Shown: piece by piece, positions 3,037 through 13,748 of the stretch
How the letters are laid out: every line of letters begins with the position of its first letter
Position numbering within the stretch: position 1 is the stretch's first letter
DNA from: Vulcanimicrobiales bacterium
GTDB lineage: Bacteria; Vulcanimicrobiota; Vulcanimicrobiia; Vulcanimicrobiales; Vulcanimicrobiaceae
Direction of reading: 5' to 3'
Assembly (NCBI GenBank): GCA_038231455.1
Contig: JBBRLI010000041.1
Coordinates: 1-13,748 of the forward strand
Length of the DNA: 13,748 nucleotides
Notes under the pieces: model-generated
The model's input: the letters and a program-made list of their open reading frames with translations, nothing else
Database searches by the model: none
Told to the model about the DNA's origin: nothing
Position numbers and translations under genes: made by a program

Positions 3037-5892
3037 ATGACGGATTTAGACCTCCGCAGTCGCGTCGTCGCTCGGGCGTCCCTTGCCGCGCGGATCGCCG
3101 CGGCCGAGCCGGCCATTATCTCCATCGTGGCACCAGCCGGCTTTGGCAAAACCACGTTCGTGCGACAGCTCGTCCACGCAGAAGAGGCCGTTGCCATTTG
3201 CGACTGCCGCGGAGTGCGCTCGCCGATCGAATTCGCGCGCCGGATTATCTCTTCGCTTGCTGATGAAATGCCCGACCGAGCACCGAATCTTTCGCAAAGC
3301 GCGACGATGGTCGGCGATGGCGGGAACGCGGAGCACGACGCGTTCGCGCTCTTGCTCTCCGCCTGGCGCGTCCGCACGCGCAAAGCTATTTTCGTTTTCG
3401 AGAACGCTGAGGACATCGTCATCGAGAGCGACGTGCGCGATCTGCACGCCCGCTTGCTGACCTCGCGCCCGCCCGACCGCACGATCGTCGTGTGCTCGCG
3501 CGAGCCGCTGCGTATCCATCTGACGCGCTTTGCGGCGCCGCACGAAGTGCTTTCCATTCGAGCCGAGGATCTCGCGTTCACCGTTGCCGAGATCGCGGAG
3601 GTCCTGACACTCGCGGGTTCTTCCGCAGCGCATGCCGAGAAAATTGCGACGGTTTCCGGCGGTTGGCCGATTGCCGTGCTGCTCATGGCCCGTTTCGTAA
3701 GCGAAGGCCGCATCGAAGAGTTGCTCGACCGGCTCGACGACGTCGCCTACGAAGAGTTGCATGAGTATCTTGCCGATGAGGTGATCGCGGCGATGCCGGC
3801 GACGCTCATCGACGCACTCACCGCATGTGCGACCATTCCGAATGCAACGGCCCGCGACCTAACGCTCGCGCTGGGTGACCGCGCGGCTGCCGATGCGTTC
3901 GTGACATTCGAACGGACAACGCCATTCGTGACGCGTCACAAAGCAAACGTGTTCGAAGTTCATACGTTGATCGCAACGATTCTGAACGAACGTTTCCCCA
4001 ATCGCGGCGCGTCGCTGCTCCAAAATGCGAGTAACGCGTACGAAAGCGCCGGCGAACATCTGCGCGCCTCGCAGATCGCGCTTGCGTCCGGCAATCAAAT
4101 GGAAGCGGCACGGCTCCTCGACAAACTCGAAGTAATCGAAGACCGTGCGCCGGATCTTGCCTATTCGAATATTCTTGCGGCACTCGACCGAGACGTCATC
4201 ATCCGCTATCCGCGTCTGTGGGCGGTAACCGCGTTGCTGCAAACGTTTTCCGCAGATTCGTCCGCGTTGCTCGCGGAGGCCGAGCGGCTCTGGAGCGGGC
4301 TTGCGCCTGATGTCGAGCCGATCGAGCGCGTCTACATTTTCGTTTTCCGCGTGCTCTTACGGAGCTACGTCGGTCGATTTGCCGAGGCGCTGGCGATCAT
4401 CGATGAGTTTCGCGCCTCAATCGCTGCACCCGATATACCGACGACGCAGCTGCACGCGTGGCTGCTCTACCTTCGGTCGCTGATGACGGCCCGAATGGGG
4501 AACCTTGCCGTTGCCCGACGCGAAGTCGAGCTCGCGCTTCCGCTCGTGCAATCGATGTACGTGATGGCCGGCGGCTCGCTCTTGGTGTTGGCGACGGACA
4601 TCGAGCGCGTTCTCGGGAATCGCGCGGCCGAACGCACGTTGATCGAACGCGCGCTCGTCAACATCCGCTATACCAACATGAGCAACTTCATCGCGTTCTA
4701 CCTCGCCGAAGCGACATTTGGCGCGTGGTTGGCCGGCGAAGAGGACGAATACGCTGAGTGGGCATTCTCGCTCGGAAATGAAGTGGCCCGGGAAGGCATT
4801 GCGGGGTTTGCATTCTTCGCTGCGCGGGCGCGCAATCAAGACGTGATGCCGCGGACGGTCGATCTGCTTAAATGGGTGATCGCCGGGCACCTTATCGCGG
4901 CCGTCGATGCATCCGAACCGACCCTCGCCCGCGAGCACGCGCGAGCCGCTCACGCGGCCGCGCTTCGCTTCTACTCGCCATTTATGGAAACGCTCGCCCA
5001 TCTCGCACTCGCGGCAACGGCGCCGCGCGACGAGCGCGCCGGCCACTTCGCGAGTGCGGTGGCAAGCGCAGCACTCATCGATTCTCCACCGTTGCAAGCG
5101 GCGGTCGCCGCAGCGGCGAGCGGCAGCGATGCCGGCTTTCTGCAATCGTTCATGCTTCGGCTCGACCGGACGGAGCCGCTCGAAAGTCACGGCCTGGCGA
5201 TCGAATTCACGACGGGTACGGTTCGCCGGAACGGCATCCCGATTTCGTTGCCCGAACGCGAGATGGCCCTCCTTTTTGCACTCGCGCTGCGCCCCGAGCC
5301 GATCCCCCGCGAACGGATTACCGATATGCTGTGGGCCGATCTCGACGATGACGCAGCACGCAATGCCTTTCACGTCTGCTCTCACCGTCTCAAAGCACGC
5401 CTGGAGAGCGACGCGGTGATCGTCCACACGCGAGCCGGTTACGCGATCCGCACCGACATCGAAGTCGATCTCTGGCAGATCGATCGGTCGATGCTGCGCG
5501 TACGCGGTTCGAGCGTCGTCGGTCCCGCACGCGAGGCAATCTTGCAGTCGCTGTACGGACAGCTCTGCGCGATGCGCTCCGAGCGTTTCGCTGATTGGGA
5601 CTGGTTTGCGCCCGTAGCACGCCATCTTCGCGAACTCCGTGGAGAGGTGGCGCAATTACTTGCCACCGATGCGCTCAACAACGGCGACCACGGCGAAGCG
5701 CTTGCCCTTGCAAAAGAAATGATTCGCTACGATGCTTGCGACGAGCCCGCCCGTGAAATCGCGATCAGAGCACACCTTGCCAGCGGCAACAAAGCGGCAG
5801 CGCTCCAGCACTTTCGCCAATATCGCGACACGCTCAAGGCCGAACTGCAATGCGAGCCGTCGGCAGCGATTGCAGCATTGATCGAAGCCTGA
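3037..5892 (+). CDS. MalT-like STAND ATPase transcriptional regulator with C-terminal OmpR-type wHTH and BTAD domain
   Basis: Walker A APAGFGKTT; Walker B-like IFVFENAED; SREP..., DLAFTVAE, SGGWP and YLADEV motifs of MalT-type STAND proteins; helical TPR-like middle; C-terminal REMALLFALAL...RERITDMLW...NAFHVCSHRLK...GYAI (wHTH) and VDLWQ...YDACDEPAREIAIRAHL.SGNKAAALQHFRQY...LKAELQCEPS (BTAD). Confidence 0.9.
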   Translation: MTDLDLRSRVVARASLAARIAAAEPAIISIVAPAGFGKTTFVRQLVHAEEAVAICDCRGVRSPIEFARRIISSLADEMPDRAPNLSQSATMVGDGGNAEHDAFALLLSAWRVRTRKAIFVFENAEDIVIESDVRDLHARLLTSRPPDRTIVVCSREPLRIHLTRFAAPHEVLSIRAEDLAFTVAEIAEVLTLAGSSAAHAEKIATVSGGWPIAVLLMARFVSEGRIEELLDRLDDVAYEELHEYLADEVIAAMPATLIDALTACATIPNATARDLTLALGDRAAADAFVTFERTTPFVTRHKANVFEVHTLIATILNERFPNRGASLLQNASNAYESAGEHLRASQIALASGNQMEAARLLDKLEVIEDRAPDLAYSNILAALDRDVIIRYPRLWAVTALLQTFSADSSALLAEAERLWSGLAPDVEPIERVYIFVFRVLLRSYVGRFAEALAIIDEFRASIAAPDIPTTQLHAWLLYLRSLMTARMGNLAVARREVELALPLVQSMYVMAGGSLLVLATDIERVLGNRAAERTLIERALVNIRYTNMSNFIAFYLAEATFGAWLAGEEDEYAEWAFSLGNEVAREGIAGFAFFAARARNQDVMPRTVDLLKWVIAGHLIAAVDASEPTLAREHARAAHAAALRFYSPFMETLAHLALAATAPRDERAGHFASAVASAALIDSPPLQAAVAAAASGSDAGFLQSFMLRLDRTEPLESHGLAIEFTTGTVRRNGIPISLPEREMALLFALALRPEPIPRERITDMLWADLDDDAARNAFHVCSHRLKARLESDAVIVHTRAGYAIRTDIEVDLWQIDRSMLRVRGSSVVGPAREAILQSLYGQLCAMRSERFADWDWFAPVARHLRELRGEVAQLLATDALNNGDHGEALALAKEMIRYDACDEPAREIAIRAHLASGNKAAALQHFRQYRDTLKAELQCEPSAAIAALIEA

Positions 5893-7395: not shown

Positions 7396-9972
7396 ATGCG
7401 ACGTTTTCGTTGGCTTCGGTATTTGACCGCGCTCGTTTTCATCAGCGGTTGCTCGTCGAGCGGTGGTGTGCACAACGTCCCGCAGACACCCCTTGGGCGT
7501 GAACGCACCTCCACTAGCGTGCGGTCGTCGCTTGCTGTCGGCGAGTCAGCGTATCCATCGGGTGCGGCCGCACTGCTGCCGGGAACGATCGCCTTCGACA
7601 ACTACGACATCGGCGGTGAGGGCCTCGCGTATCACACGCAAAACCGCGCGAATCCCGGCGGCAAGTATCGCGCCGACGGTCTCGGTGTCGAGAACGATGG
7701 CGATACCGGCTACGGCAACGGCTTCGACGTCGGCTGGAATGCGACAGGCAACTGGTATAGGTATTCCGTCGACGTCCAAGCGGCGGGGTCGTATCCTGTC
7801 GCCTATCGCATCGCTGCGAACGCGCCGGGTTCGATGCACGTTGAGGACGAACGCGGCACCAATCTCAGCGGCCCGATCGCAATCGCTGCGAGCGGCGGTT
7901 TTCAAGCCTGGACGACCGTCCGCGGGACACTTGCGCTTGCCGCCGGTGCACACGTGCTCAAAGTTGCAATCGACAGCGGAAATGGGTCGTTCAATCTCAA
8001 CGTGATGACGATCGGACAAGGCGCGGTCCTAGCGACGGAGGCTGCCTATCCGAGTGGAACTCCGTGGCCGGTGCCGGGGACGATTGAATTCGACAATTAC
8101 GACACGGGCGGTGAGGGAGTTGCGTATCACACCCATCACCTAACGAATCCCGGCGGAAAATATCGAAACGACGGGGTTGGCGTTGAAACCGATCGCGACC
8201 CGGGCATCGGGAACGGTTTCGATGTCGGCTGGAACGACACGGGAAATTATTATAAGTACACGCTCGCCGTTCAACCGGCGGGGACGTATCCGGTCACCGT
8301 CCGCCTGGCCGCAAATGGCGCGGGGACATTCCATCTGGAAGACGAGAACGGCAAAAATCTCACCGGCACCATCGCCGTTGCGGCAACGGGCGGCTATCAA
8401 TCATGGATAAACGTTGCGACCAGCGTGACGCTGGACGCCGGTAAGCATGTCTTGAAAATCGCGATCGATAGCGGCAATGGCTCGTTCAATCTCAACCTCA
8501 TGACGCTCGGAACGCCGAGCACAACGCCCTCGCCGATTGCGAGCGCATCGCCCACGCCCGGTCCTTCGCCATCGGTGCAGCCAAGTATCACGCCGACATC
8601 CGGACCGACGCCGACGAGCGGGGACATCGATTGGCCCACCCAAGGCTTCGATCGCGCGCGTACGGGTGAAAACCCGAACGAGAAGCGCTTGACGGCCGGG
8701 ACGATCGGCGGCTTGAAACTTCTGTGGACTGCACGCATCGCCGGCGATACCACGAGCCGTTTTGCAAATTCGCAACCCGTGGTTGCATCGCACGTCGTTG
8801 TCGGCGGCGCACAAAAAAACGTCGTCTACACCGGCGACGAACACGGGTACTTTGCCGCTTTCGACGCAACATCCGGCGCGCTCATTTGGCGCAAAGCACT
8901 CGGGTCGCAAGTCACGAGTTGCCCCGATATTCCCGATCGCACGTTTGGGATTACGGACGCAGCGACGATCGACCACGCACGTAACCGTATCTACGTCGTG
9001 GACGGAGCGGGCAAACTCTGGGCACTCGACCTTGCCACCGGCAATGTCTCTGCCGGCTGGCCTGCGGGCGGACTCTCCGTCGTCGATGATCCGTCAATCG
9101 ACCACGTCTATAGCGGTCTTGCCTTGAATAGCGCAAACGGCATGCTCTATGTCCCAAGCGCGAGCTACTGCGATATCGGGCGCTGGCACGGTGCGCTACG
9201 CGCGATCAACACGCAGACCGCAAGCCTTGCATCGATCTACTACTTTGCCACGGGATCGACGGCGCCGCCCGCAAGCACGGGACCGTACGGTGGCGGCGTT
9301 TGGGGTTGGGGCGGCATCGCGATCGACGCGCAAACGAACAATGTGTACGGCGCGAGCGGAAATACCAATCCGCAAGTTTCCGCGCCGGCGAGCAATGAAA
9401 GCATCACGGAGTGGAACGCGAGTCTCGGACTCGTCGCAAGCGCATATCCGCCGGTCTCCAACGGTGACCTCGATTTCGGCGGCTCGACCGTGTTGTACAA
9501 CGCCGGCGGCAGTCCGTGCGTCATCGCATTCCGTAAGAACGGCCAGCTCTTTAGCTACAATCGCTCGAATCTGGCGGCCGGTCCGGCAACGGCGTGGCAA
9601 ATCGCTCGAGACGGTATCTCTTCGCCCGCCTTCTCTTCGGCTACCGGATTGATTTATTTCAACAATCCCAACGCCGGGGCACTCGCACAGGGCGTGTATG
9701 CGCTACGAACGCTCGGCGGTTGCATCATCGATCAAACACCAGCGTGGAGCGTGACGGGCGTGAACGCGAATCTGCAAGCGCCGAGCATCGCGGGCGGCAT
9801 CATCTATGAAGCATTGGGATCGAAAATCCAAGCGTATAGCGCTTCGAGCGGTGCGCCGCTCTGGACAAGCGGCTCGAGCGTGACGAATGGGATTCAAGCC
9901 GCACCGACGATCGTCAACGGACGCCTCTACGTCGTCGATTGGAGCGACAAACTCTACGCGTTCGGACTCTAG
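7396..9972 (+). CDS. Lipoprotein with two tandem CBM6-like carbohydrate-binding modules, Pro/Thr/Ser linker and PQQ-type beta-propeller
   Basis: Signal peptide with lipobox ISG-C19. Two PGTI..DNYD.GGEG.AYH...GW...GN...Y.V...G.Y.V..R.AA...GG.Q.W......L.AG.HVLK modules. SPTP linker. DWPTQGFDRARTG start and propeller motifs (AAFDATSGALIW, WALDLATG, GGGVWGWGG, DLDFGGS, AYSASSGAPLW, PTIVNGRLYV...LYAFGL). Confidence 0.88.
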   Translation: MRRFRWLRYLTALVFISGCSSSGGVHNVPQTPLGRERTSTSVRSSLAVGESAYPSGAAALLPGTIAFDNYDIGGEGLAYHTQNRANPGGKYRADGLGVENDGDTGYGNGFDVGWNATGNWYRYSVDVQAAGSYPVAYRIAANAPGSMHVEDERGTNLSGPIAIAASGGFQAWTTVRGTLALAAGAHVLKVAIDSGNGSFNLNVMTIGQGAVLATEAAYPSGTPWPVPGTIEFDNYDTGGEGVAYHTHHLTNPGGKYRNDGVGVETDRDPGIGNGFDVGWNDTGNYYKYTLAVQPAGTYPVTVRLAANGAGTFHLEDENGKNLTGTIAVAATGGYQSWINVATSVTLDAGKHVLKIAIDSGNGSFNLNLMTLGTPSTTPSPIASASPTPGPSPSVQPSITPTSGPTPTSGDIDWPTQGFDRARTGENPNEKRLTAGTIGGLKLLWTARIAGDTTSRFANSQPVVASHVVVGGAQKNVVYTGDEHGYFAAFDATSGALIWRKALGSQVTSCPDIPDRTFGITDAATIDHARNRIYVVDGAGKLWALDLATGNVSAGWPAGGLSVVDDPSIDHVYSGLALNSANGMLYVPSASYCDIGRWHGALRAINTQTASLASIYYFATGSTAPPASTGPYGGGVWGWGGIAIDAQTNNVYGASGNTNPQVSAPASNESITEWNASLGLVASAYPPVSNGDLDFGGSTVLYNAGGSPCVIAFRKNGQLFSYNRSNLAAGPATAWQIARDGISSPAFSSATGLIYFNNPNAGALAQGVYALRTLGGCIIDQTPAWSVTGVNANLQAPSIAGGIIYEALGSKIQAYSASSGAPLWTSGSSVTNGIQAAPTIVNGRLYVVDWSDKLYAFGL
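7543..8511 (+). repeat. Intragenic tandem duplication of a 495-nt (165-aa) CBM6-like module
   Basis: Copy 1 is about 7543-8016 and copy 2 about 8038-8511, with the same 495-nt offset at both ends. Shared strings include NPGGKYR, GNGFDVGWN and HVLK.AIDSGNGSFNLN.MT. Confidence 0.9.
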
Positions 9973-9987
9973 GCGACATCCGAGGGA

Positions 9988-10154
9988 ATCGGCGTCGTCC
10001 CGCGCAAGTCACCGAATAGCCAACGCATGGGAACTCGGTGGAAATCCGAGACGGTCGCGCCACTGTAAGCGGGGAGCCGCTGAAGGTCACTGTCGCAAGA
10101 TGGGAAGGCCTCAGCACGACGGCTACGATCCGCAAGTCAGGACATCTGCCGAGG
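9988..10154 (+). ncRNA. Cobalamin (B12) riboswitch
   Basis: GGGAA-CTCGG-TGGAAAT-CCGAG-ACGGT-CGC-GCCACTGTAA ... GTCACTG ... TGGGAAGG ... AAGTCAGGACATCTGCC (B12 box). TCGGC (9989-9993) can pair with GCCGA (10148-10152). It lies directly upstream of a BtuB-like gene. Confidence 0.93.
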
Positions 10155-10170
10155 CACAACTCGAACCAAC

Positions 10171-10191
10171 GCCCCGCGTCAAGGGCAGGAG
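10171..10191 (+). promoter_or_regulatory. Riboswitch expression platform: hairpin abutting the SD
   Basis: GCCC-cgcgtcaa-GGGC immediately followed by AGGAG (SD, 10187-10191), then GTG at 10200. No U-tract, which suggests translational control. Confidence 0.55.
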
Positions 10192-10199
10192 TCAGAATC

Positions 10200-12065
10200 G
10201 TGCGTCGCTTTGCGTACGCTCTCGGCATCGTTGCCGTGAGCCTCTTTGCGTCGGCTGGAACCGTATCCGCCGACACAACACCCTCCCCGTCTCCCACCGG
10301 TCTCACCGAAATCGGCCGTGTCTCGACGAGCGATCGCCAGGACGAACCGCGTTCGGCGAGCGCGCGAACGACCTTTATTGTTACAAAAGCCGAGATGGTC
10401 GCTCATGGCGACCGCACCGTCGCCGATTCGCTCGAACGCGTTCCCGGCGTCAACCTCACCCGCTACGGAGCGTTCGGTGCCCAAACGGGTATCTCGATTC
10501 GCGGCGCATCGTCAAGTCAAGTGCTCGTCCTACTCGATGGACGCGCCGTCGGCGGCAACCAAGTCGGCGGCGTCGATCTTGCATCGTTCGTTGCGACCGG
10601 TATCGAGCGGATCGAAATCGTTGAAGGCCCGGGCGCGACGCTCTATGGTTCGGGCGCTGTCGGTGGCGTCATCAATTTGATCACATCGAAGAGTCGCAGC
10701 GCCTATCGTCAGCCGCAAGTGGATCTTGGCATCGGCTCGTACGGCGATCGTTTCGTGAGCTTTGAGACGAAGAATTTCGCGCTCGAGCGACACGTCGCGT
10801 CCAACAACTTTGCCTATCCGGTCGATGGCGCCGCGACGGCGATCCGTGCGAACGACGATGCATCGGAAACGACTGCGCGCGCGACCACGACCGGAACACT
10901 CGGCGCATTCGCCGTGACGGCGGCGATCGGCGCGACGACGCGTCATCTGGGCATTCCGGGATCGGCAGGTTTTGGGACCGTCTCCGCGCGCCAGGAAGAC
11001 GGCGCGACCGATGCCCGCATCGTGCTTTCACAACGCCGGGCGCAAGCCACGACCACGATCGATCTTTCGGGCGTGCGCGAGCGCGTTAGCGCCCACGACT
11101 TCGATCAGCGCGATAGCGCGAACGGCTTCGTGCCGAGCAATCAGACCAGTATCGAGTCACGTGCACAACTCGGTCTACGCAACGTCGTCTCGAGCGATTC
11201 GTCACGTTTGATCTACGGGATCGATCTCACGAGCGGTTCGGCACGCAACGACGATGGCGTTGGCGACATTGCCGCGCGTCCGTTCGCACAAACAGCCGCC
11301 TTCGTTCAGGAAAGCCTTCAAGTCTCGCGAGCGTCACGCGTGTACGCCGGCATTCGTGCCGAACGCGACGGCGGACTCGGCGGGGCGATTTCGCCATCGC
11401 TCGGCGCCGTCATCGCGCTTGCCGACGGCGTTTCCGCTCGCATCAATGCCGCAACGTCATTCCGCGCTCCGTTTGCAGCGGAACTCTACTACCCAAATTT
11501 CGGCAATCCGAAGTTGCGAGCAGAACGCACCTCCGGCGGCGACATCACGTTGTCGAGCACACACGTCCTTGGCGGTGCAAGCCTCGGCTACTTCGTCTCG
11601 AACGGCCGCGACCTCATTACCTACGACAGCACCGCAAATACCGACATCAATATCGCGCAGTCAAGGATCGCCGGTTTCACGTTCGACGTGCAAACCGTTC
11701 CGCTCAATGGCTTTCTGACCAAACTCAATCTAACCGATACCTATCGCGCGCTCGGCTTCACACCGGGCACGAACGCCGCGCGTCTGCCGTACCGACCGAC
11801 GATTCTTGCGAATCTGGATCTTGGCTTTATCGGCAACCCGACTTCGCGACTTGCGGCGCTCGGTGTCATCGCACACACCGAAGGCTTGCGCGATCCGGCG
11901 GGTGCGTTTACCTATACGCGTATCGATGCGTATGCGCGGCTACGGATCGCTCCGCGCGCGCTCCTTTCGCTACGCAGTACGAATCTGGGCAACGAGCGCT
12001 ATGCGATCATTGCGGGTTATCCGCTTCCCGGGCGCGCCTTTTTCGTCGATCTCTCGACGCGGTAG
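10200..12065 (+). CDS. btuB: TonB-dependent outer-membrane receptor, BtuB-like (vitamin B12)
   Basis: Likely GTG start at 10200 after AGGAG (the track start at 10038 lies inside the riboswitch). Signal peptide; TonB-box-like LTEIGRVSTS; plug motifs TVADSLERVPGV, SIRG...VLVLLDG, IERIEIVEGPGATLYGSGAVGGVINLIT; barrel motifs FRAP..ELY, GNPKLRAE, NLGNERY....GYPLPGR. Under a B12 riboswitch. Confidence 0.9.
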   Translation: MRRFAYALGIVAVSLFASAGTVSADTTPSPSPTGLTEIGRVSTSDRQDEPRSASARTTFIVTKAEMVAHGDRTVADSLERVPGVNLTRYGAFGAQTGISIRGASSSQVLVLLDGRAVGGNQVGGVDLASFVATGIERIEIVEGPGATLYGSGAVGGVINLITSKSRSAYRQPQVDLGIGSYGDRFVSFETKNFALERHVASNNFAYPVDGAATAIRANDDASETTARATTTGTLGAFAVTAAIGATTRHLGIPGSAGFGTVSARQEDGATDARIVLSQRRAQATTTIDLSGVRERVSAHDFDQRDSANGFVPSNQTSIESRAQLGLRNVVSSDSSRLIYGIDLTSGSARNDDGVGDIAARPFAQTAAFVQESLQVSRASRVYAGIRAERDGGLGGAISPSLGAVIALADGVSARINAATSFRAPFAAELYYPNFGNPKLRAERTSGGDITLSSTHVLGGASLGYFVSNGRDLITYDSTANTDINIAQSRIAGFTFDVQTVPLNGFLTKLNLTDTYRALGFTPGTNAARLPYRPTILANLDLGFIGNPTSRLAALGVIAHTEGLRDPAGAFTYTRIDAYARLRIAPRALLSLRSTNLGNERYAIIAGYPLPGRAFFVDLSTR

Positions 12066-12149
12066 TTCGCAAGGCCGTTTCGTTCGCTCTTTGCTCGGAT
12101 CGACCGCGACCGGACGATTCGACGCGCGTTACGCGCAGTTAGGATTGCT

Positions 12150-12656
12150 ATGCTCACCACCTTGGTCTTGATCGCGACCGGCGGATTCGCCAGTCTACTT
12201 CTCCCCTGCGTCACCCCGTTTGGCGCACTCGCCGCATGCGCCGCGCTACGCGGACGTTTGCGCTCCGCACTTTTTGTCGTCGGAGCCACCTGGGCCGTCA
12301 ACGAAGCAGCCGGCTTCTTCTTTTTTGGTTATCCGCGCACGAGCGATTCATACGCGTGGGCGCTGCTCCAGGTCATTGCCGCTGCGGTTGCAACTGCGGT
12401 CGCAGCAGCAGTTGTCGCGGGCACACGCAAGCGACCGTTTTTCATGCGTGCCGTTCTAACGCTCGCCGTGGCAACGCTCGTTTTTGAATCAGCGCTCGCG
12501 CTTGCGGCGCGTCTTGCGGGGCTCTCGCTTGCAGCGTTCTCGCTTCCGATCGACGCTTTGGTTATCGAAACCAACGTGCTCTTCTTCCTCGCGTTTGAAG
12601 CGGCCGCGCTGCTGCTGGGTGCGGTTCGCTCGAGCCGCGGCAGGCAGCAACCGTGA
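12150..12656 (+). CDS. Small integral membrane protein (about 5 TM) in the B12 operon; candidate corrinoid/cobalt transporter
   Basis: Highly hydrophobic 168 aa with PCVTPFGALA and W.VNE..GF...GYP motifs. SD-like AGGA upstream. The stop overlaps the next start (GTGA). Confidence 0.75.
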   Translation: MLTTLVLIATGGFASLLLPCVTPFGALAACAALRGRLRSALFVVGATWAVNEAAGFFFFGYPRTSDSYAWALLQVIAAAVATAVAAAVVAGTRKRPFFMRAVLTLAVATLVFESALALAARLAGLSLAAFSLPIDALVIETNVLFFLAFEAAALLLGAVRSSRGRQQP

Positions 12657-13603
12657 ACTACCCGCGCATCGTAAGTCTGCTGCCGAGCGCAACAGAGATT
12701 CTCTTCGCGCTCGGCGCCGGCCAGCAAGTCGTCGGCGTAACGCACGAATGCGACACGCCGATTGAAGCGGCGAGTCGCCCGCGCCTGACAAGCACGCGCA
12801 TCAAAAAAGTGGCGCTCGACGGCGAGTCGATTTCGATGTCGATCGAACGCCAAGTACAGGCGCATCTACACGGCGGCGAGAGCCTCTATGACTTGGATGA
12901 GGAGCGCCTCCATCGACTGGGACCGGATGTGGTGGTCACGCAATCACTTTGCGACATTTGCGCCGTGGCGTTCGCGACCGTCGAACGCGCGGTATCGACG
13001 ATGCCAAACGATCCGACACTGGTTTCTCTCGAACCCTCGACGCTTGCCGAAGTGAAAGAAAACGTTGCGCTTCTCGGCCGGGTCGCGCACCGCGAAGCCG
13101 AAGCCTCCGCGTTGCTCATGGAAATGAACGAGCGAATCGCGGCGGTCGGACGTCGCGTGGGTTCGCTGCCCCGCAAGCGCACCGTCATGCTCGAATGGAC
13201 CGATCCGCCGTACGGTGGAGGGCACTGGTCGAGCGAGTGCGTCGCGCTAGCCGGAGGTGAACCGCGGTGCGCGTTTCCCGGCGTTCCGTCTGAGGCAATT
13301 TCGTGGGATGCCGTCATCGCTGCGGACCCGGAGGTCATTATCATCGCACCCTGCGGAACGGGACTCGCAGACACGCTCGCTGCAATCGACGATCTCGCGC
13401 GACGCGAACCGTTCTGGCTCGATTTTGCCGCGCGGCGGCGCGTCGTCGCGATCGATGGCCATCACTACGTGAATCGGCCGAGCCCCGCGCTCGTGCGAAC
13501 GATCGAACTCTTCGCGCACGCAATTCATCCAGAGCACGATATCCATCTCCAAGACCATGAATTCGCCGTGGTAACGGAGCAACTGCTTAGCCGCTCTTCG
13601 TAA
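12653..13603 (+). CDS. BtuF/TroA-like cobalamin-binding protein lacking a signal peptide
   Basis: RIVSLLPSATEILFALG...VVGVTHECD.P, L.PDVVVTQ.LC..CAV, LEW.DP...GHW, ADPEVIIIAPCG, NRPSP.L motifs. Begins 4 residues before RIVSL. GTG start is coupled to the upstream TGA. Confidence 0.85.
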   Translation: MNYPRIVSLLPSATEILFALGAGQQVVGVTHECDTPIEAASRPRLTSTRIKKVALDGESISMSIERQVQAHLHGGESLYDLDEERLHRLGPDVVVTQSLCDICAVAFATVERAVSTMPNDPTLVSLEPSTLAEVKENVALLGRVAHREAEASALLMEMNERIAAVGRRVGSLPRKRTVMLEWTDPPYGGGHWSSECVALAGGEPRCAFPGVPSEAISWDAVIAADPEVIIIAPCGTGLADTLAAIDDLARREPFWLDFAARRRVVAIDGHHYVNRPSPALVRTIELFAHAIHPEHDIHLQDHEFAVVTEQLLSRSS

Positions 13604-13748
13604 ACCCACGTCGCCATCGTCGGCCTCGGCGGCCTGGGTCACATGGGAGTGAAGATCGCGCACGCGCTGGGCGCGAACGTTACGGTCCTTAGCCAGTCAC
13701 TCTCGAAAGAAGCCGACGGCAAGCGCCTCGGCGCCGACCACTATCTCG
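13604..13748 (+). pseudogene. 5'-truncated NAD(P)-dependent zinc alcohol dehydrogenase (cinnamyl-ADH/YahK type); runs off the window
   Basis: Immediately after the TAA at 13601-13603, in the same frame: [48 protein letters not shown]. This is the Rossmann GLGGLGH motif of CAD-like MDRs. The N-terminal Zn catalytic domain is missing. Confidence 0.85.

Follow-up and report, generated by a model that had tools for sequence, protein, structure and literature searches.

A 2021 review, in the part of it that is accessible, names just BtuBFCD, BtuM and CbrT as B12 transporters (PMC8123684). BtuM has been proposed and shown to import B12 alone (Rempel et al. 2018, PMC6072759), and S-components that act without a module have precedents in solitary BioY and in BtuM (PMC11109136, PMC6072759). 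According to the BtuM work, many B12-auxotrophic Gram-negative bacteria have BtuB and no BtuCDF, and the inner-membrane step is mostly unidentified (PMC6072759). Described here is an operon in a Vulcanimicrobiales bacterium in which a cobalamin riboswitch is followed by genes for a btuB-like receptor, a 168 amino acid (aa) inner-membrane protein of an unnamed family, and a BtuF-like protein that has no signal peptide. The operon lies at the end of a 13,748-base stretch, termed the window, which is the whole of contig C41 (JBBRLI010000041.1) of a 3.71-Mb genome in 106 contigs. This genome (G000) is 93.67% complete, a figure that bounds each absence given below for this genome.

The interpretation proposed is that the 168-aa protein may be a BtuM-like solitary corrinoid carrier acting after BtuB, and that the BtuF-fold protein coupled to it may serve as the cytoplasmic acceptor. 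It is based on sequence comparisons and predicted structures, and is given a probability of about one half. From these we infer the substrate, the transport, the membrane topology, the role of a conserved cysteine (Cys20) and the acceptor role of the BtuF-fold protein.

Layout of the operon

The features of the operon, with positions in the window, are:

9973..10167, + strand: cobalamin riboswitch aptamer (RF00174 covariance-model match)
10200..12065, + strand: btuB-like TonB-dependent outer-membrane receptor, 621 aa, with an N-terminal signal peptide (Plug and barrel domains)
12150..12656, + strand: 168-aa six-helix inner-membrane protein of an unnamed family, candidate solitary corrinoid carrier (predicted energy-coupling factor (ECF) S-component fold)
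12653..13603, + strand: 316-aa BtuF/ShuT-fold protein without a signal peptide (PF01497, AlphaFold2 (AF2) model)
13604..13748, + strand: 5′-truncated zinc-type alcohol dehydrogenase (ADH) gene, Ahr-like, which continues on contig C1 and forms the operon boundary (ADH_zinc_N and Ahr profiles)

A reading of this stretch made from its letters alone (the sequence-only reading) had described a riboswitch heading three co-oriented genes, of which the last two are coupled by GTGA and the last encodes a signal-less BtuF-like protein, with the operon ending at an ADH remnant without a permease or ATPase. These points stand. The riboswitch matches the full RF00174 model (positions 1–189) with 70.1 bits (gathering score 31.5, E-value = 6.4e-16). 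It starts at position 9973, 15 bases before the 9988 of that reading, and is the sole cobalamin riboswitch match in the genome. An 84-base gap separates the end of the receptor gene (12065) from the membrane-protein open reading frame (12150). The overlap of the membrane-gene stop with the BtuF-like start, as GTGA, is read directly from the sequence. The ADH gene is truncated at its 5′ end, and a Pfam scan of the window displays no FecCD or ATP-binding cassette (ABC) ATPase gene and no CbiQ family match. A scan of positions 9700–13748 gave 0 promoter-like sites and three terminator-like sites, where 4.8 are expected; all three are within coding sequence, and the scan does not inform the transcript limits. 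The closest named homologues of the window proteins are in Vulcanimicrobiaceae and other Eremiobacterota metagenome-assembled genomes.

The start of the receptor gene is likely GTG 10200, and a GGAG between the aptamer and this GTG is the likely ribosome-binding site. The receptor displays a Plug domain (PF07715, 4.5e-23) and a barrel domain (PF00593, TonB_dep_Rec_b-barrel, 1.9e-19). Its best NCBIfam family of 29 is TIGR01779 (TonB-B12, 1.7e-46), with a score of 159 bits that is under the equivalog cut-off of 599.7; the score for NF007926 is also under the cut-off (105.7 bits vs 836). The B12 specificity of the receptor is thus assigned because of the riboswitch directly upstream, and not from the sequence score.

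The membrane protein

The 168-aa protein has no Pfam or NCBIfam match, nor is there a Pfam family in any of 38 homologues scanned. A profile search of 1.84 billion cluster representatives yielded 674 clusters of the family (at 50% identity) with E-values of 0.001 or less, and 491 with 1e-10 or less. A word-indexed search recovered just 7 relatives. Members are mostly 175–200 aa in length; four of them (P0003–P0006) are 62%–73% identical to the window's protein. The nearest ESM-Atlas clusters are unnamed proteins, from Pseudomonadota in 25 of 30 matches, with weak leads to ECF S-component families.

The AF2 model of the protein shows six helices (predicted local distance difference test (pLDDT) 85.3, predicted template-modelling score 0.82). 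In an exhaustive structural search with VIA-align, rows 1–13 are all ECF S-components or CbiM/NikM proteins (Z = 9.1–11.6, with 138–156 residues aligned). These include RibU (5kbw, Z = 11.6 over 144 aligned residues; 3p5n, Z = 11.3), NikM (4m5c, Z = 11.1) and CbiM (5x3x, Z = 10.1), and also PanT, FolT, BioY and ThiT. BtuM (8ovv) is at rank 15, with Z = 8.5 and a root-mean-square deviation of 4.3 over 157 aligned residues. With Foldseek, RibU (3p5n) has a probability of 0.75 and a template-modelling (TM) score of 0.48. The uniformity of the VIA-align list is persuasive, and on the strength of the model the protein appears to have the ECF S-component fold, which is also that of BtuM. Profiles of 8 family members (alignment A1) and of 61 (alignment A2) gave 0 matches at an E-value of 10 or less against all PDB chains, BtuM included. 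With no sequence match, and with carriers that are largely of other taxa, the family is not BtuM but is BtuM-like in fold and context.

Eight residues are invariant in 61 sequences: C20, P23, A26, N51, G55, Y61, P62 and W70. Cys20, in loop 1 between helices 1 and 2, is the sole invariant cysteine of the family. Asn51 and Gly55 are at the outer end of helix 3, Tyr61-Pro62 are in loop 3, and Trp70 is at the outer end of helix 4. Comparison of the sequence with the helix limits of the model shows positively charged loops at 34–39 and 90–99 and a positively charged C-terminus. From these helix limits and the positive-inside rule, the invariant residues are predicted to be on the periplasmic side. 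Such a placement would put them where S-components bind their substrates.

The presence of NikM and CbiM (Z = 11.1 and 10.1) among the best structural matches brings up another explanation, i.e. that the membrane protein acts like CbiM/NikM and takes in cobalt or another metal instead of corrinoids. Cobalt transporters are often under the control of B12 riboswitches, and in two loci the membrane gene is beside cobQ/cobT/cobS. This explanation is very improbable. No CbiQ/EcfT match is present in the genome, and since CbiC was not found either, imported cobalt would be of little use here for B12 synthesis. The usual neighbour of the membrane gene is a TonB-dependent receptor behind the same riboswitch, and the partner protein has the fold of tetrapyrrole binders. 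In addition, the N-terminal metal-binding motif that we take to be characteristic of CbiM is not evident in the membrane protein.

Genomic context of the membrane-protein family

The context of the family was analyzed in 116 loci, 36 from named genomes and 80 from metagenomes. The metagenome loci came from a scan with alignment A1 (a scan with a single protein had given 464 pattern matches, none of them confirmed); many are fragments of 1–4 kb, and their proteins have 41% identity or less to that of the window. Carriers among the named genomes are mostly Alphaproteobacteria, e.g. Bradyrhizobium, Rhizobium tropici, Zavarzinia, Rhodopila, Enhydrobacter and Sphingomonas, together with one Vulcanimicrobiota and one Rokubacteria.

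Linkage of the homologues to B12 loci, which the sequence-only reading had expected, is seen in 23 of the 36 genome loci, where a cobalamin riboswitch is present within ~6 kb. In 18 of these 23 the riboswitch precedes the homologue on its strand, in a string of co-directional genes. A separate nhmmer profile detected riboswitches in 11 of the 80 metagenome loci; this is a lower bound only, because the profile was trained on alphaproteobacterial examples and many of the fragments are short. A TonB-dependent receptor is found in 16/36 loci, usually directly upstream, and cob, btuR or cbiZ genes in 4/36. Other neighbours are btuR/cobO with DUF1636, cobT-cobS-cobQ, cbiZ, DUF6925, and riboswitch-controlled nrdAB and metE. 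In one relative of this genome the order is cobQ, homologue, riboswitch, btuB (this locus is probably the same record as L025), and in a second relative it is riboswitch, homologue, and a methylmalonyl-CoA-mutase-like open reading frame.

Two of these neighbours deserve separate mention. DUF6925 is beside the membrane gene in riboswitch-controlled strings in six of the 36 loci (L015, L022, L028, L029, L035, L042) and in six of the 80. At L021 and L035, the membrane gene is flanked by cobalamin riboswitches that precede class I ribonucleotide reductase genes (nrdAB) and metE, which encode B12-independent isozymes and are here controlled by B12.

The sequence-only reading had also allowed that relatives might carry btuCD in this operon. 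This is not what the loci show. A FecCD-like open reading frame is found within ~6–7 kb in one of the 36 genome loci and in none of the 80 metagenome loci. The locus in question is in Sphingomonas aracearum (L041:1448-3645), where a FecCD-like open reading frame and an ABC ATPase are just upstream of a riboswitch, receptor, membrane gene and cobT; it is the sole locus of the 116 that unites btuCD-like genes with the membrane-protein family. Five carrier genomes were searched whole, and in two of them, among which is Enhydrobacter aerosaccus ATCC 27094 (L019), a FecCD permease is absent genome-wide; one of these two displays the order riboswitch, receptor, membrane gene.

Signal-less BtuF-fold proteins of two different subfamilies are recurrent partners of the membrane protein. 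A PF01497 gene is present in 28 of the 116 loci (11/36 genome and 17/80 metagenome), in most cases directly beside the membrane gene; culturable carriers of a pair include Zavarzinia marina and Rhizobium tropici (L010, L011). Of the 28 partner genes, 26 have a start codon 4–8 residues ahead of the first strand. A hydrophobic leader is absent from all 28: Kyte-Doolittle means over 12 residues reach 1.83 at most, and this maximum falls in a frame overlapping the membrane gene. When the partner type is mapped on a tree of 117 membrane proteins (two rows were left off, being too short or containing X), it needs two changes, compared with a mean of 9.7 when labels are shuffled, and none of 500 shuffles gave a value as low. 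Because kin share labels, this result shows clustering and not co-evolution.

A gene of the PF01902 family (diphthamide-synthase-like PP-loop ATPase) directly follows the signal-less BtuF-like gene in two loci (L057:8423-9124 and L082:1884-2663) and is beside the membrane gene in a third (L016:5226-5939). Judging by position, the module may include this gene as well.

The signal-less BtuF-fold protein

The BtuF-like open reading frame matches PF01497 (6.6e-18) from residue 6. The protein starts five residues before the first-strand motif RIVSLLPSATE, which leaves no signal peptide. The frame opens just 18 codons before GTG 12653, and there is no ATG, GTG or TTG in this interval. By comparison, a hydrophobic leader of 25 residues precedes this motif in P0001, the other BtuF-like protein of the genome. 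The score for the BtuF equivalog NF002894 is under its cut-off (33.8 bits vs 234).

The AF2 model has a pLDDT of 94.1. The top Foldseek matches are ShuT (2r7a, E-value = 3.1e-15) and BtuF (5ysc; 1n4a, with a TM score of 0.85, target-normalised). ShuT, which shares with BtuF the place of best match, is a heme binder. More than 6,297 database proteins match the BtuF-like protein at an E-value of 1e-10 or less, and NCBI labels some of them "cobalamin-binding protein".

The window's protein belongs to a subfamily (alignment A3) of ~290–320 aa with HECD, LCxxCAV, EWTDPP..GGHW and PCG motifs and an insert of ~45 residues. Four cysteines and one histidine are conserved in this HECD subfamily. The partners in Alphaproteobacteria form the other subfamily, which is ~265 aa in length and has a WCGKK motif. 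The HECD-type gene is present in 24 of 41 related genomes, and cobS is within 1.5 kb of it in 5 of 27 loci of relatives, a weak link.

A second signal-less paralogue of the HECD type, with 52% identity, is found on contig C14 (L049:4674-5648). It is convergent with ppa-cobS-cobT and a histidine-phosphatase (cobC-like) gene, and a 239-aa secreted-looking open reading frame of no family precedes it. Its position beside ppa-cobS-cobT would count for cytoplasmic corrinoid handling.

Every solved relative of the BtuF-like model is periplasmic or extracytoplasmic, and tight gene coupling would suit a receptor-carrier pair. The protein might accordingly be exported without an N-terminal signal and deliver corrinoid to the S-component-fold protein from the periplasm. 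This seems quite improbable: a signal peptide or hydrophobic leader could not be accommodated in any of the 28 partner genes, and the window's open reading frame is not extendable. There are also the four cysteines in conserved motifs of the HECD subfamily; conserved cysteines are more usual in cytoplasmic proteins. A prediction of the complex between the two proteins (alignment A2 for the membrane protein, A3 for its partner) gave scores of 0.00, 0.44 and 0.00 against a mark of 0.32, which is no verdict.

B12 economy of the organism and the BtuCD-like genes on another contig

The genome search gave no match for CbiC, which marks de novo corrin synthesis. CobS and CobT are present, as are three methylmalonyl-CoA mutase-family mutases and four B12-binding domains. 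The organism thus appears to salvage corrinoids and to depend on import of the corrin ring. TonB-type proteins and ~10 other receptors are also encoded. EcfT/CbiQ (PF02361) has no match in the genome, and the control search matched 11 of 14 reference genomes. For the partners of a module-dependent ECF transporter the result is the same, i.e. no PF02361 match, EcfA having had no separate search.

The claim of the sequence-only reading that BtuC and BtuD are lacking is correct for the operon but not for the organism. In a genome search for btuC, btuD and ECF genes, which that reading had proposed, the absence of an EcfT match is in keeping with it, and a set of btuF/btuC/btuD-like genes on contig C15 is not. 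The set encodes a BtuF-like protein that has a signal peptide (BtuF PRK03379, 8.8e-30), a FecCD permease whose best match is BtuC (PRK09535, 7.6e-66) and an ABC ATPase. The btuF-like gene is divergent from the permease and ATPase genes. All of these matches are below curated cut-offs, with heme and siderophore families scoring close behind, and there is no riboswitch at the set. A 673-aa open reading frame without a family follows it, and a TonB_C protein is ~2 kb away (C15:55964-56182).

The set leads to the main alternative: the BtuF-BtuCD-like system on C15 transports, and both operon proteins handle corrinoids in some other way, e.g. in decyanation/reduction, remodelling, storage, or delivery to CobS/CobT and adenosyltransferase. 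The set is complete, signal-peptide btuF included, and its best matches are B12-type families. The signal-less paralogue on C14 adjoins genes of nucleotide-loop assembly and not of transport, the four cysteines and histidine of the HECD subfamily fit cofactor chemistry as well as binding, and BtuM itself both binds B12 and decyanates it (PMC6072759). On the other side are the scores under the cut-offs with heme and siderophore families near, the lack of a riboswitch at C15, and the finding of btuC nearby in just one of 116 family loci. Moreover, in the two of five carrier genomes that have no FecCD permease, another inner-membrane route is therefore needed. This alternative is judged unlikely, while being the chief competitor of the carrier-and-acceptor interpretation.

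The ADH junction

The operon ends at the ADH gene, which is cut in its 5′ half at a point four bases past the BtuF-like stop. The match of positions 13604–13747 to ADH_zinc_N (1.7e-07) starts at profile position 1, and that to Ahr (NF047908) covers profile positions 169–213. Since the matches begin at the NAD-binding part, in Ahr at about residue 169, the gene is 5′-truncated. It shares its reading frame with the BtuF-like open reading frame.

The final 141 bases of the window (13608–13748) are identical with the 141 that open contig C1 (453 kb), on which the ADH gene continues with its 3′ half; likewise, the first 141 bases of the window are the start of contig C19. Such overlaps of 141 bases are junctions in the assembly graph (k = 141), and there are 69 of them at contig ends in the bin. 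The 13.7-kb segment between the two branch points may be strain-variable.

As the junction is a branch point of the assembly graph, a deletion or an assembly error there could have removed btuC/btuD and left the operon a truncated remnant. An 18,366-base contig that a second assembler made from the probable source run (X1) crosses the BtuF-like/ADH junction with no difference and goes 4.7 kb further (it was made from the same reads and is not independent). Because of this, the ADH truncation looks real in the dominant strain. Two low-depth contigs, 90%–95% alike, match just 13609–13653 and diverge before 13609; the contig break arises from relatives in which the sequence 5′ of the junction differs. 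In addition, L057 and L082, in unrelated contigs, display the same order of receptor, membrane gene and HECD-type BtuF-like gene, followed by PF01902 and RmuC, not btuCD, and a BtuF without a signal could not serve BtuCD from the periplasm. A remnant is thus extremely improbable.

Other open reading frames in the window

The open reading frame directly upstream of the riboswitch (7396–9972) encodes a secreted protein of 858 aa, in which two CBM6/CBM35 modules are combined with a pyrroloquinoline quinone (PQQ)-like beta-propeller. Positions 3037–5892 encode a 951-aa regulator with AAA ATPase, Trans_reg_C and BTAD domains, a SARP/AfsR-like architecture. The open reading frame at 2120–2581 matches only positions 152–235 of the 236 of adh_short_C2, i.e. 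the last third of a short-chain dehydrogenase, and is possibly another truncated gene on this contig.

Proposed mechanism

In the carrier-and-acceptor interpretation, corrinoid scarcity would let the riboswitch permit translation or transcription of the operon. The TonB-driven BtuB would bring corrinoid into the periplasm, where the 168-aa protein would bind it at the periplasmic face and carry it across the inner membrane without an ECF module; Cys20 may ligate the cobalt. The signal-less BtuF-fold protein would stay in the cytoplasm and take up the corrinoid, which would make uptake one-way. It may also process the corrinoid, or pass it to the enzymes of salvage and adenosylation.

Several observations weigh against this interpretation. 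A complete and canonical-looking btuF/btuC/btuD-like set is present on C15 (L004:7502-10161), and the BtuB-like receptor could feed that system, in which case the operon would not be the sole route. The structural evidence for the membrane protein has its limits: the Z values of 9–11.6 are below the caution line of 13 of the tool, where helical bundles may score by chance, and a Foldseek search of the model against the PDB gave nothing at an E-value of 0.001 or less. The window's member has a long branch, with 2.49 changes per column, and shows 37% identity or less to the locus set. The family is rare in relatives of the genome, being found in 5 of 61 at an E-value of 0.01 or less, with only three convincing cases, this genome included. 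In 13 of the 36 loci a riboswitch is lacking within 6 kb, and a BtuF-fold neighbour is absent from most loci. Finally, the HECD-type gene of relatives is linked to a riboswitch (within 1.5 kb) in just one of 20 loci.

A more general form of the interpretation would be a two-protein, ATP-independent importer, in which a dedicated cytoplasmic BtuF-fold protein sets the direction by removing the cofactor from the carrier at its inner face, in effect a binding-protein-dependent transporter turned inside out. Such an importer would be widespread in Alphaproteobacteria and Vulcanimicrobiota, and would be the sole inner-membrane B12 route in species that have btuB and no FecCD permease. This general form is tentative, and somewhat doubtful as a whole.

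The operon points to a second S-component-fold family, which has no detectable relation to BtuM, comprises hundreds of unnamed clusters, and is tied to B12 riboswitches and btuB. If the interpretation is correct, a cytoplasmic binding protein encoded by an overlapping gene would explain one-way, ATP-free movement by a solitary S-component. There is also a consequence for annotation: thousands of signal-less entries named "iron complex transport substrate-binding protein" or "cobalamin-binding protein" are probably cytoplasmic proteins and not transporter subunits. A literature search, in which subscription papers were mostly outside the scope and an earlier mention is therefore possible, yielded no description of the membrane-protein family or of the pairing.

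Comparison with known systems

The closest known system is BtuM of Thiobacillus denitrificans (PDB 6FFV/8OVV). Like BtuM, the present protein is a small inner-membrane protein of six helices with the ECF S-component fold (predicted in the present case). Each of the two is found beside btuB in bacteria of the Gram-negative type that have no ECF module, and each has a conserved cysteine facing the periplasm, again predicted here. There are also clear differences. The two have no detectable sequence relation. The essential cobalt-ligating cysteine of BtuM is Cys80 in loop 3 (PMC6072759); the invariant cysteine of the present family, Cys20, is in loop 1, on the same predicted side of the membrane. 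Carriers of the present family are Rhizobiales, Rhodospirillales, Acetobacteraceae and Vulcanimicrobiota, whereas those of BtuM are mostly beta- and gammaproteobacteria and Sphingomonadales (PMC6072759, Supplementary Data 1). The membrane-protein family is often paired with a signal-less BtuF-fold gene, and no such partner is mentioned for BtuM in the accessible sections (PMC6072759).

ECF transporters (ECF-CbrT, CbiMNQO) share the S-component fold; unlike them, the membrane protein has no Pfam S-component family match and no EcfT/CbiQ was found in the genome. The canonical BtuB-BtuF-BtuCD system resembles the operon in having a riboswitch-controlled btuB-like receptor and a BtuF/ShuT-fold protein, but the operon has no permease or ATPase. 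The BtuF-like protein of the window in turn differs from canonical BtuF: it has no signal peptide, and displays an insert of ~45 residues and cysteine motifs that are lacking in the periplasmic BtuF-like protein of the same genome.

A further comparison is with the exit of B12 from eukaryotic lysosomes, in which ABCD4/LMBD1 hand cobalamin to MMACHC/CblC, i.e. a membrane step followed by a cytosolic acceptor and processor. The proposed pair would, by analogy, follow the same logic with unrelated protein families.

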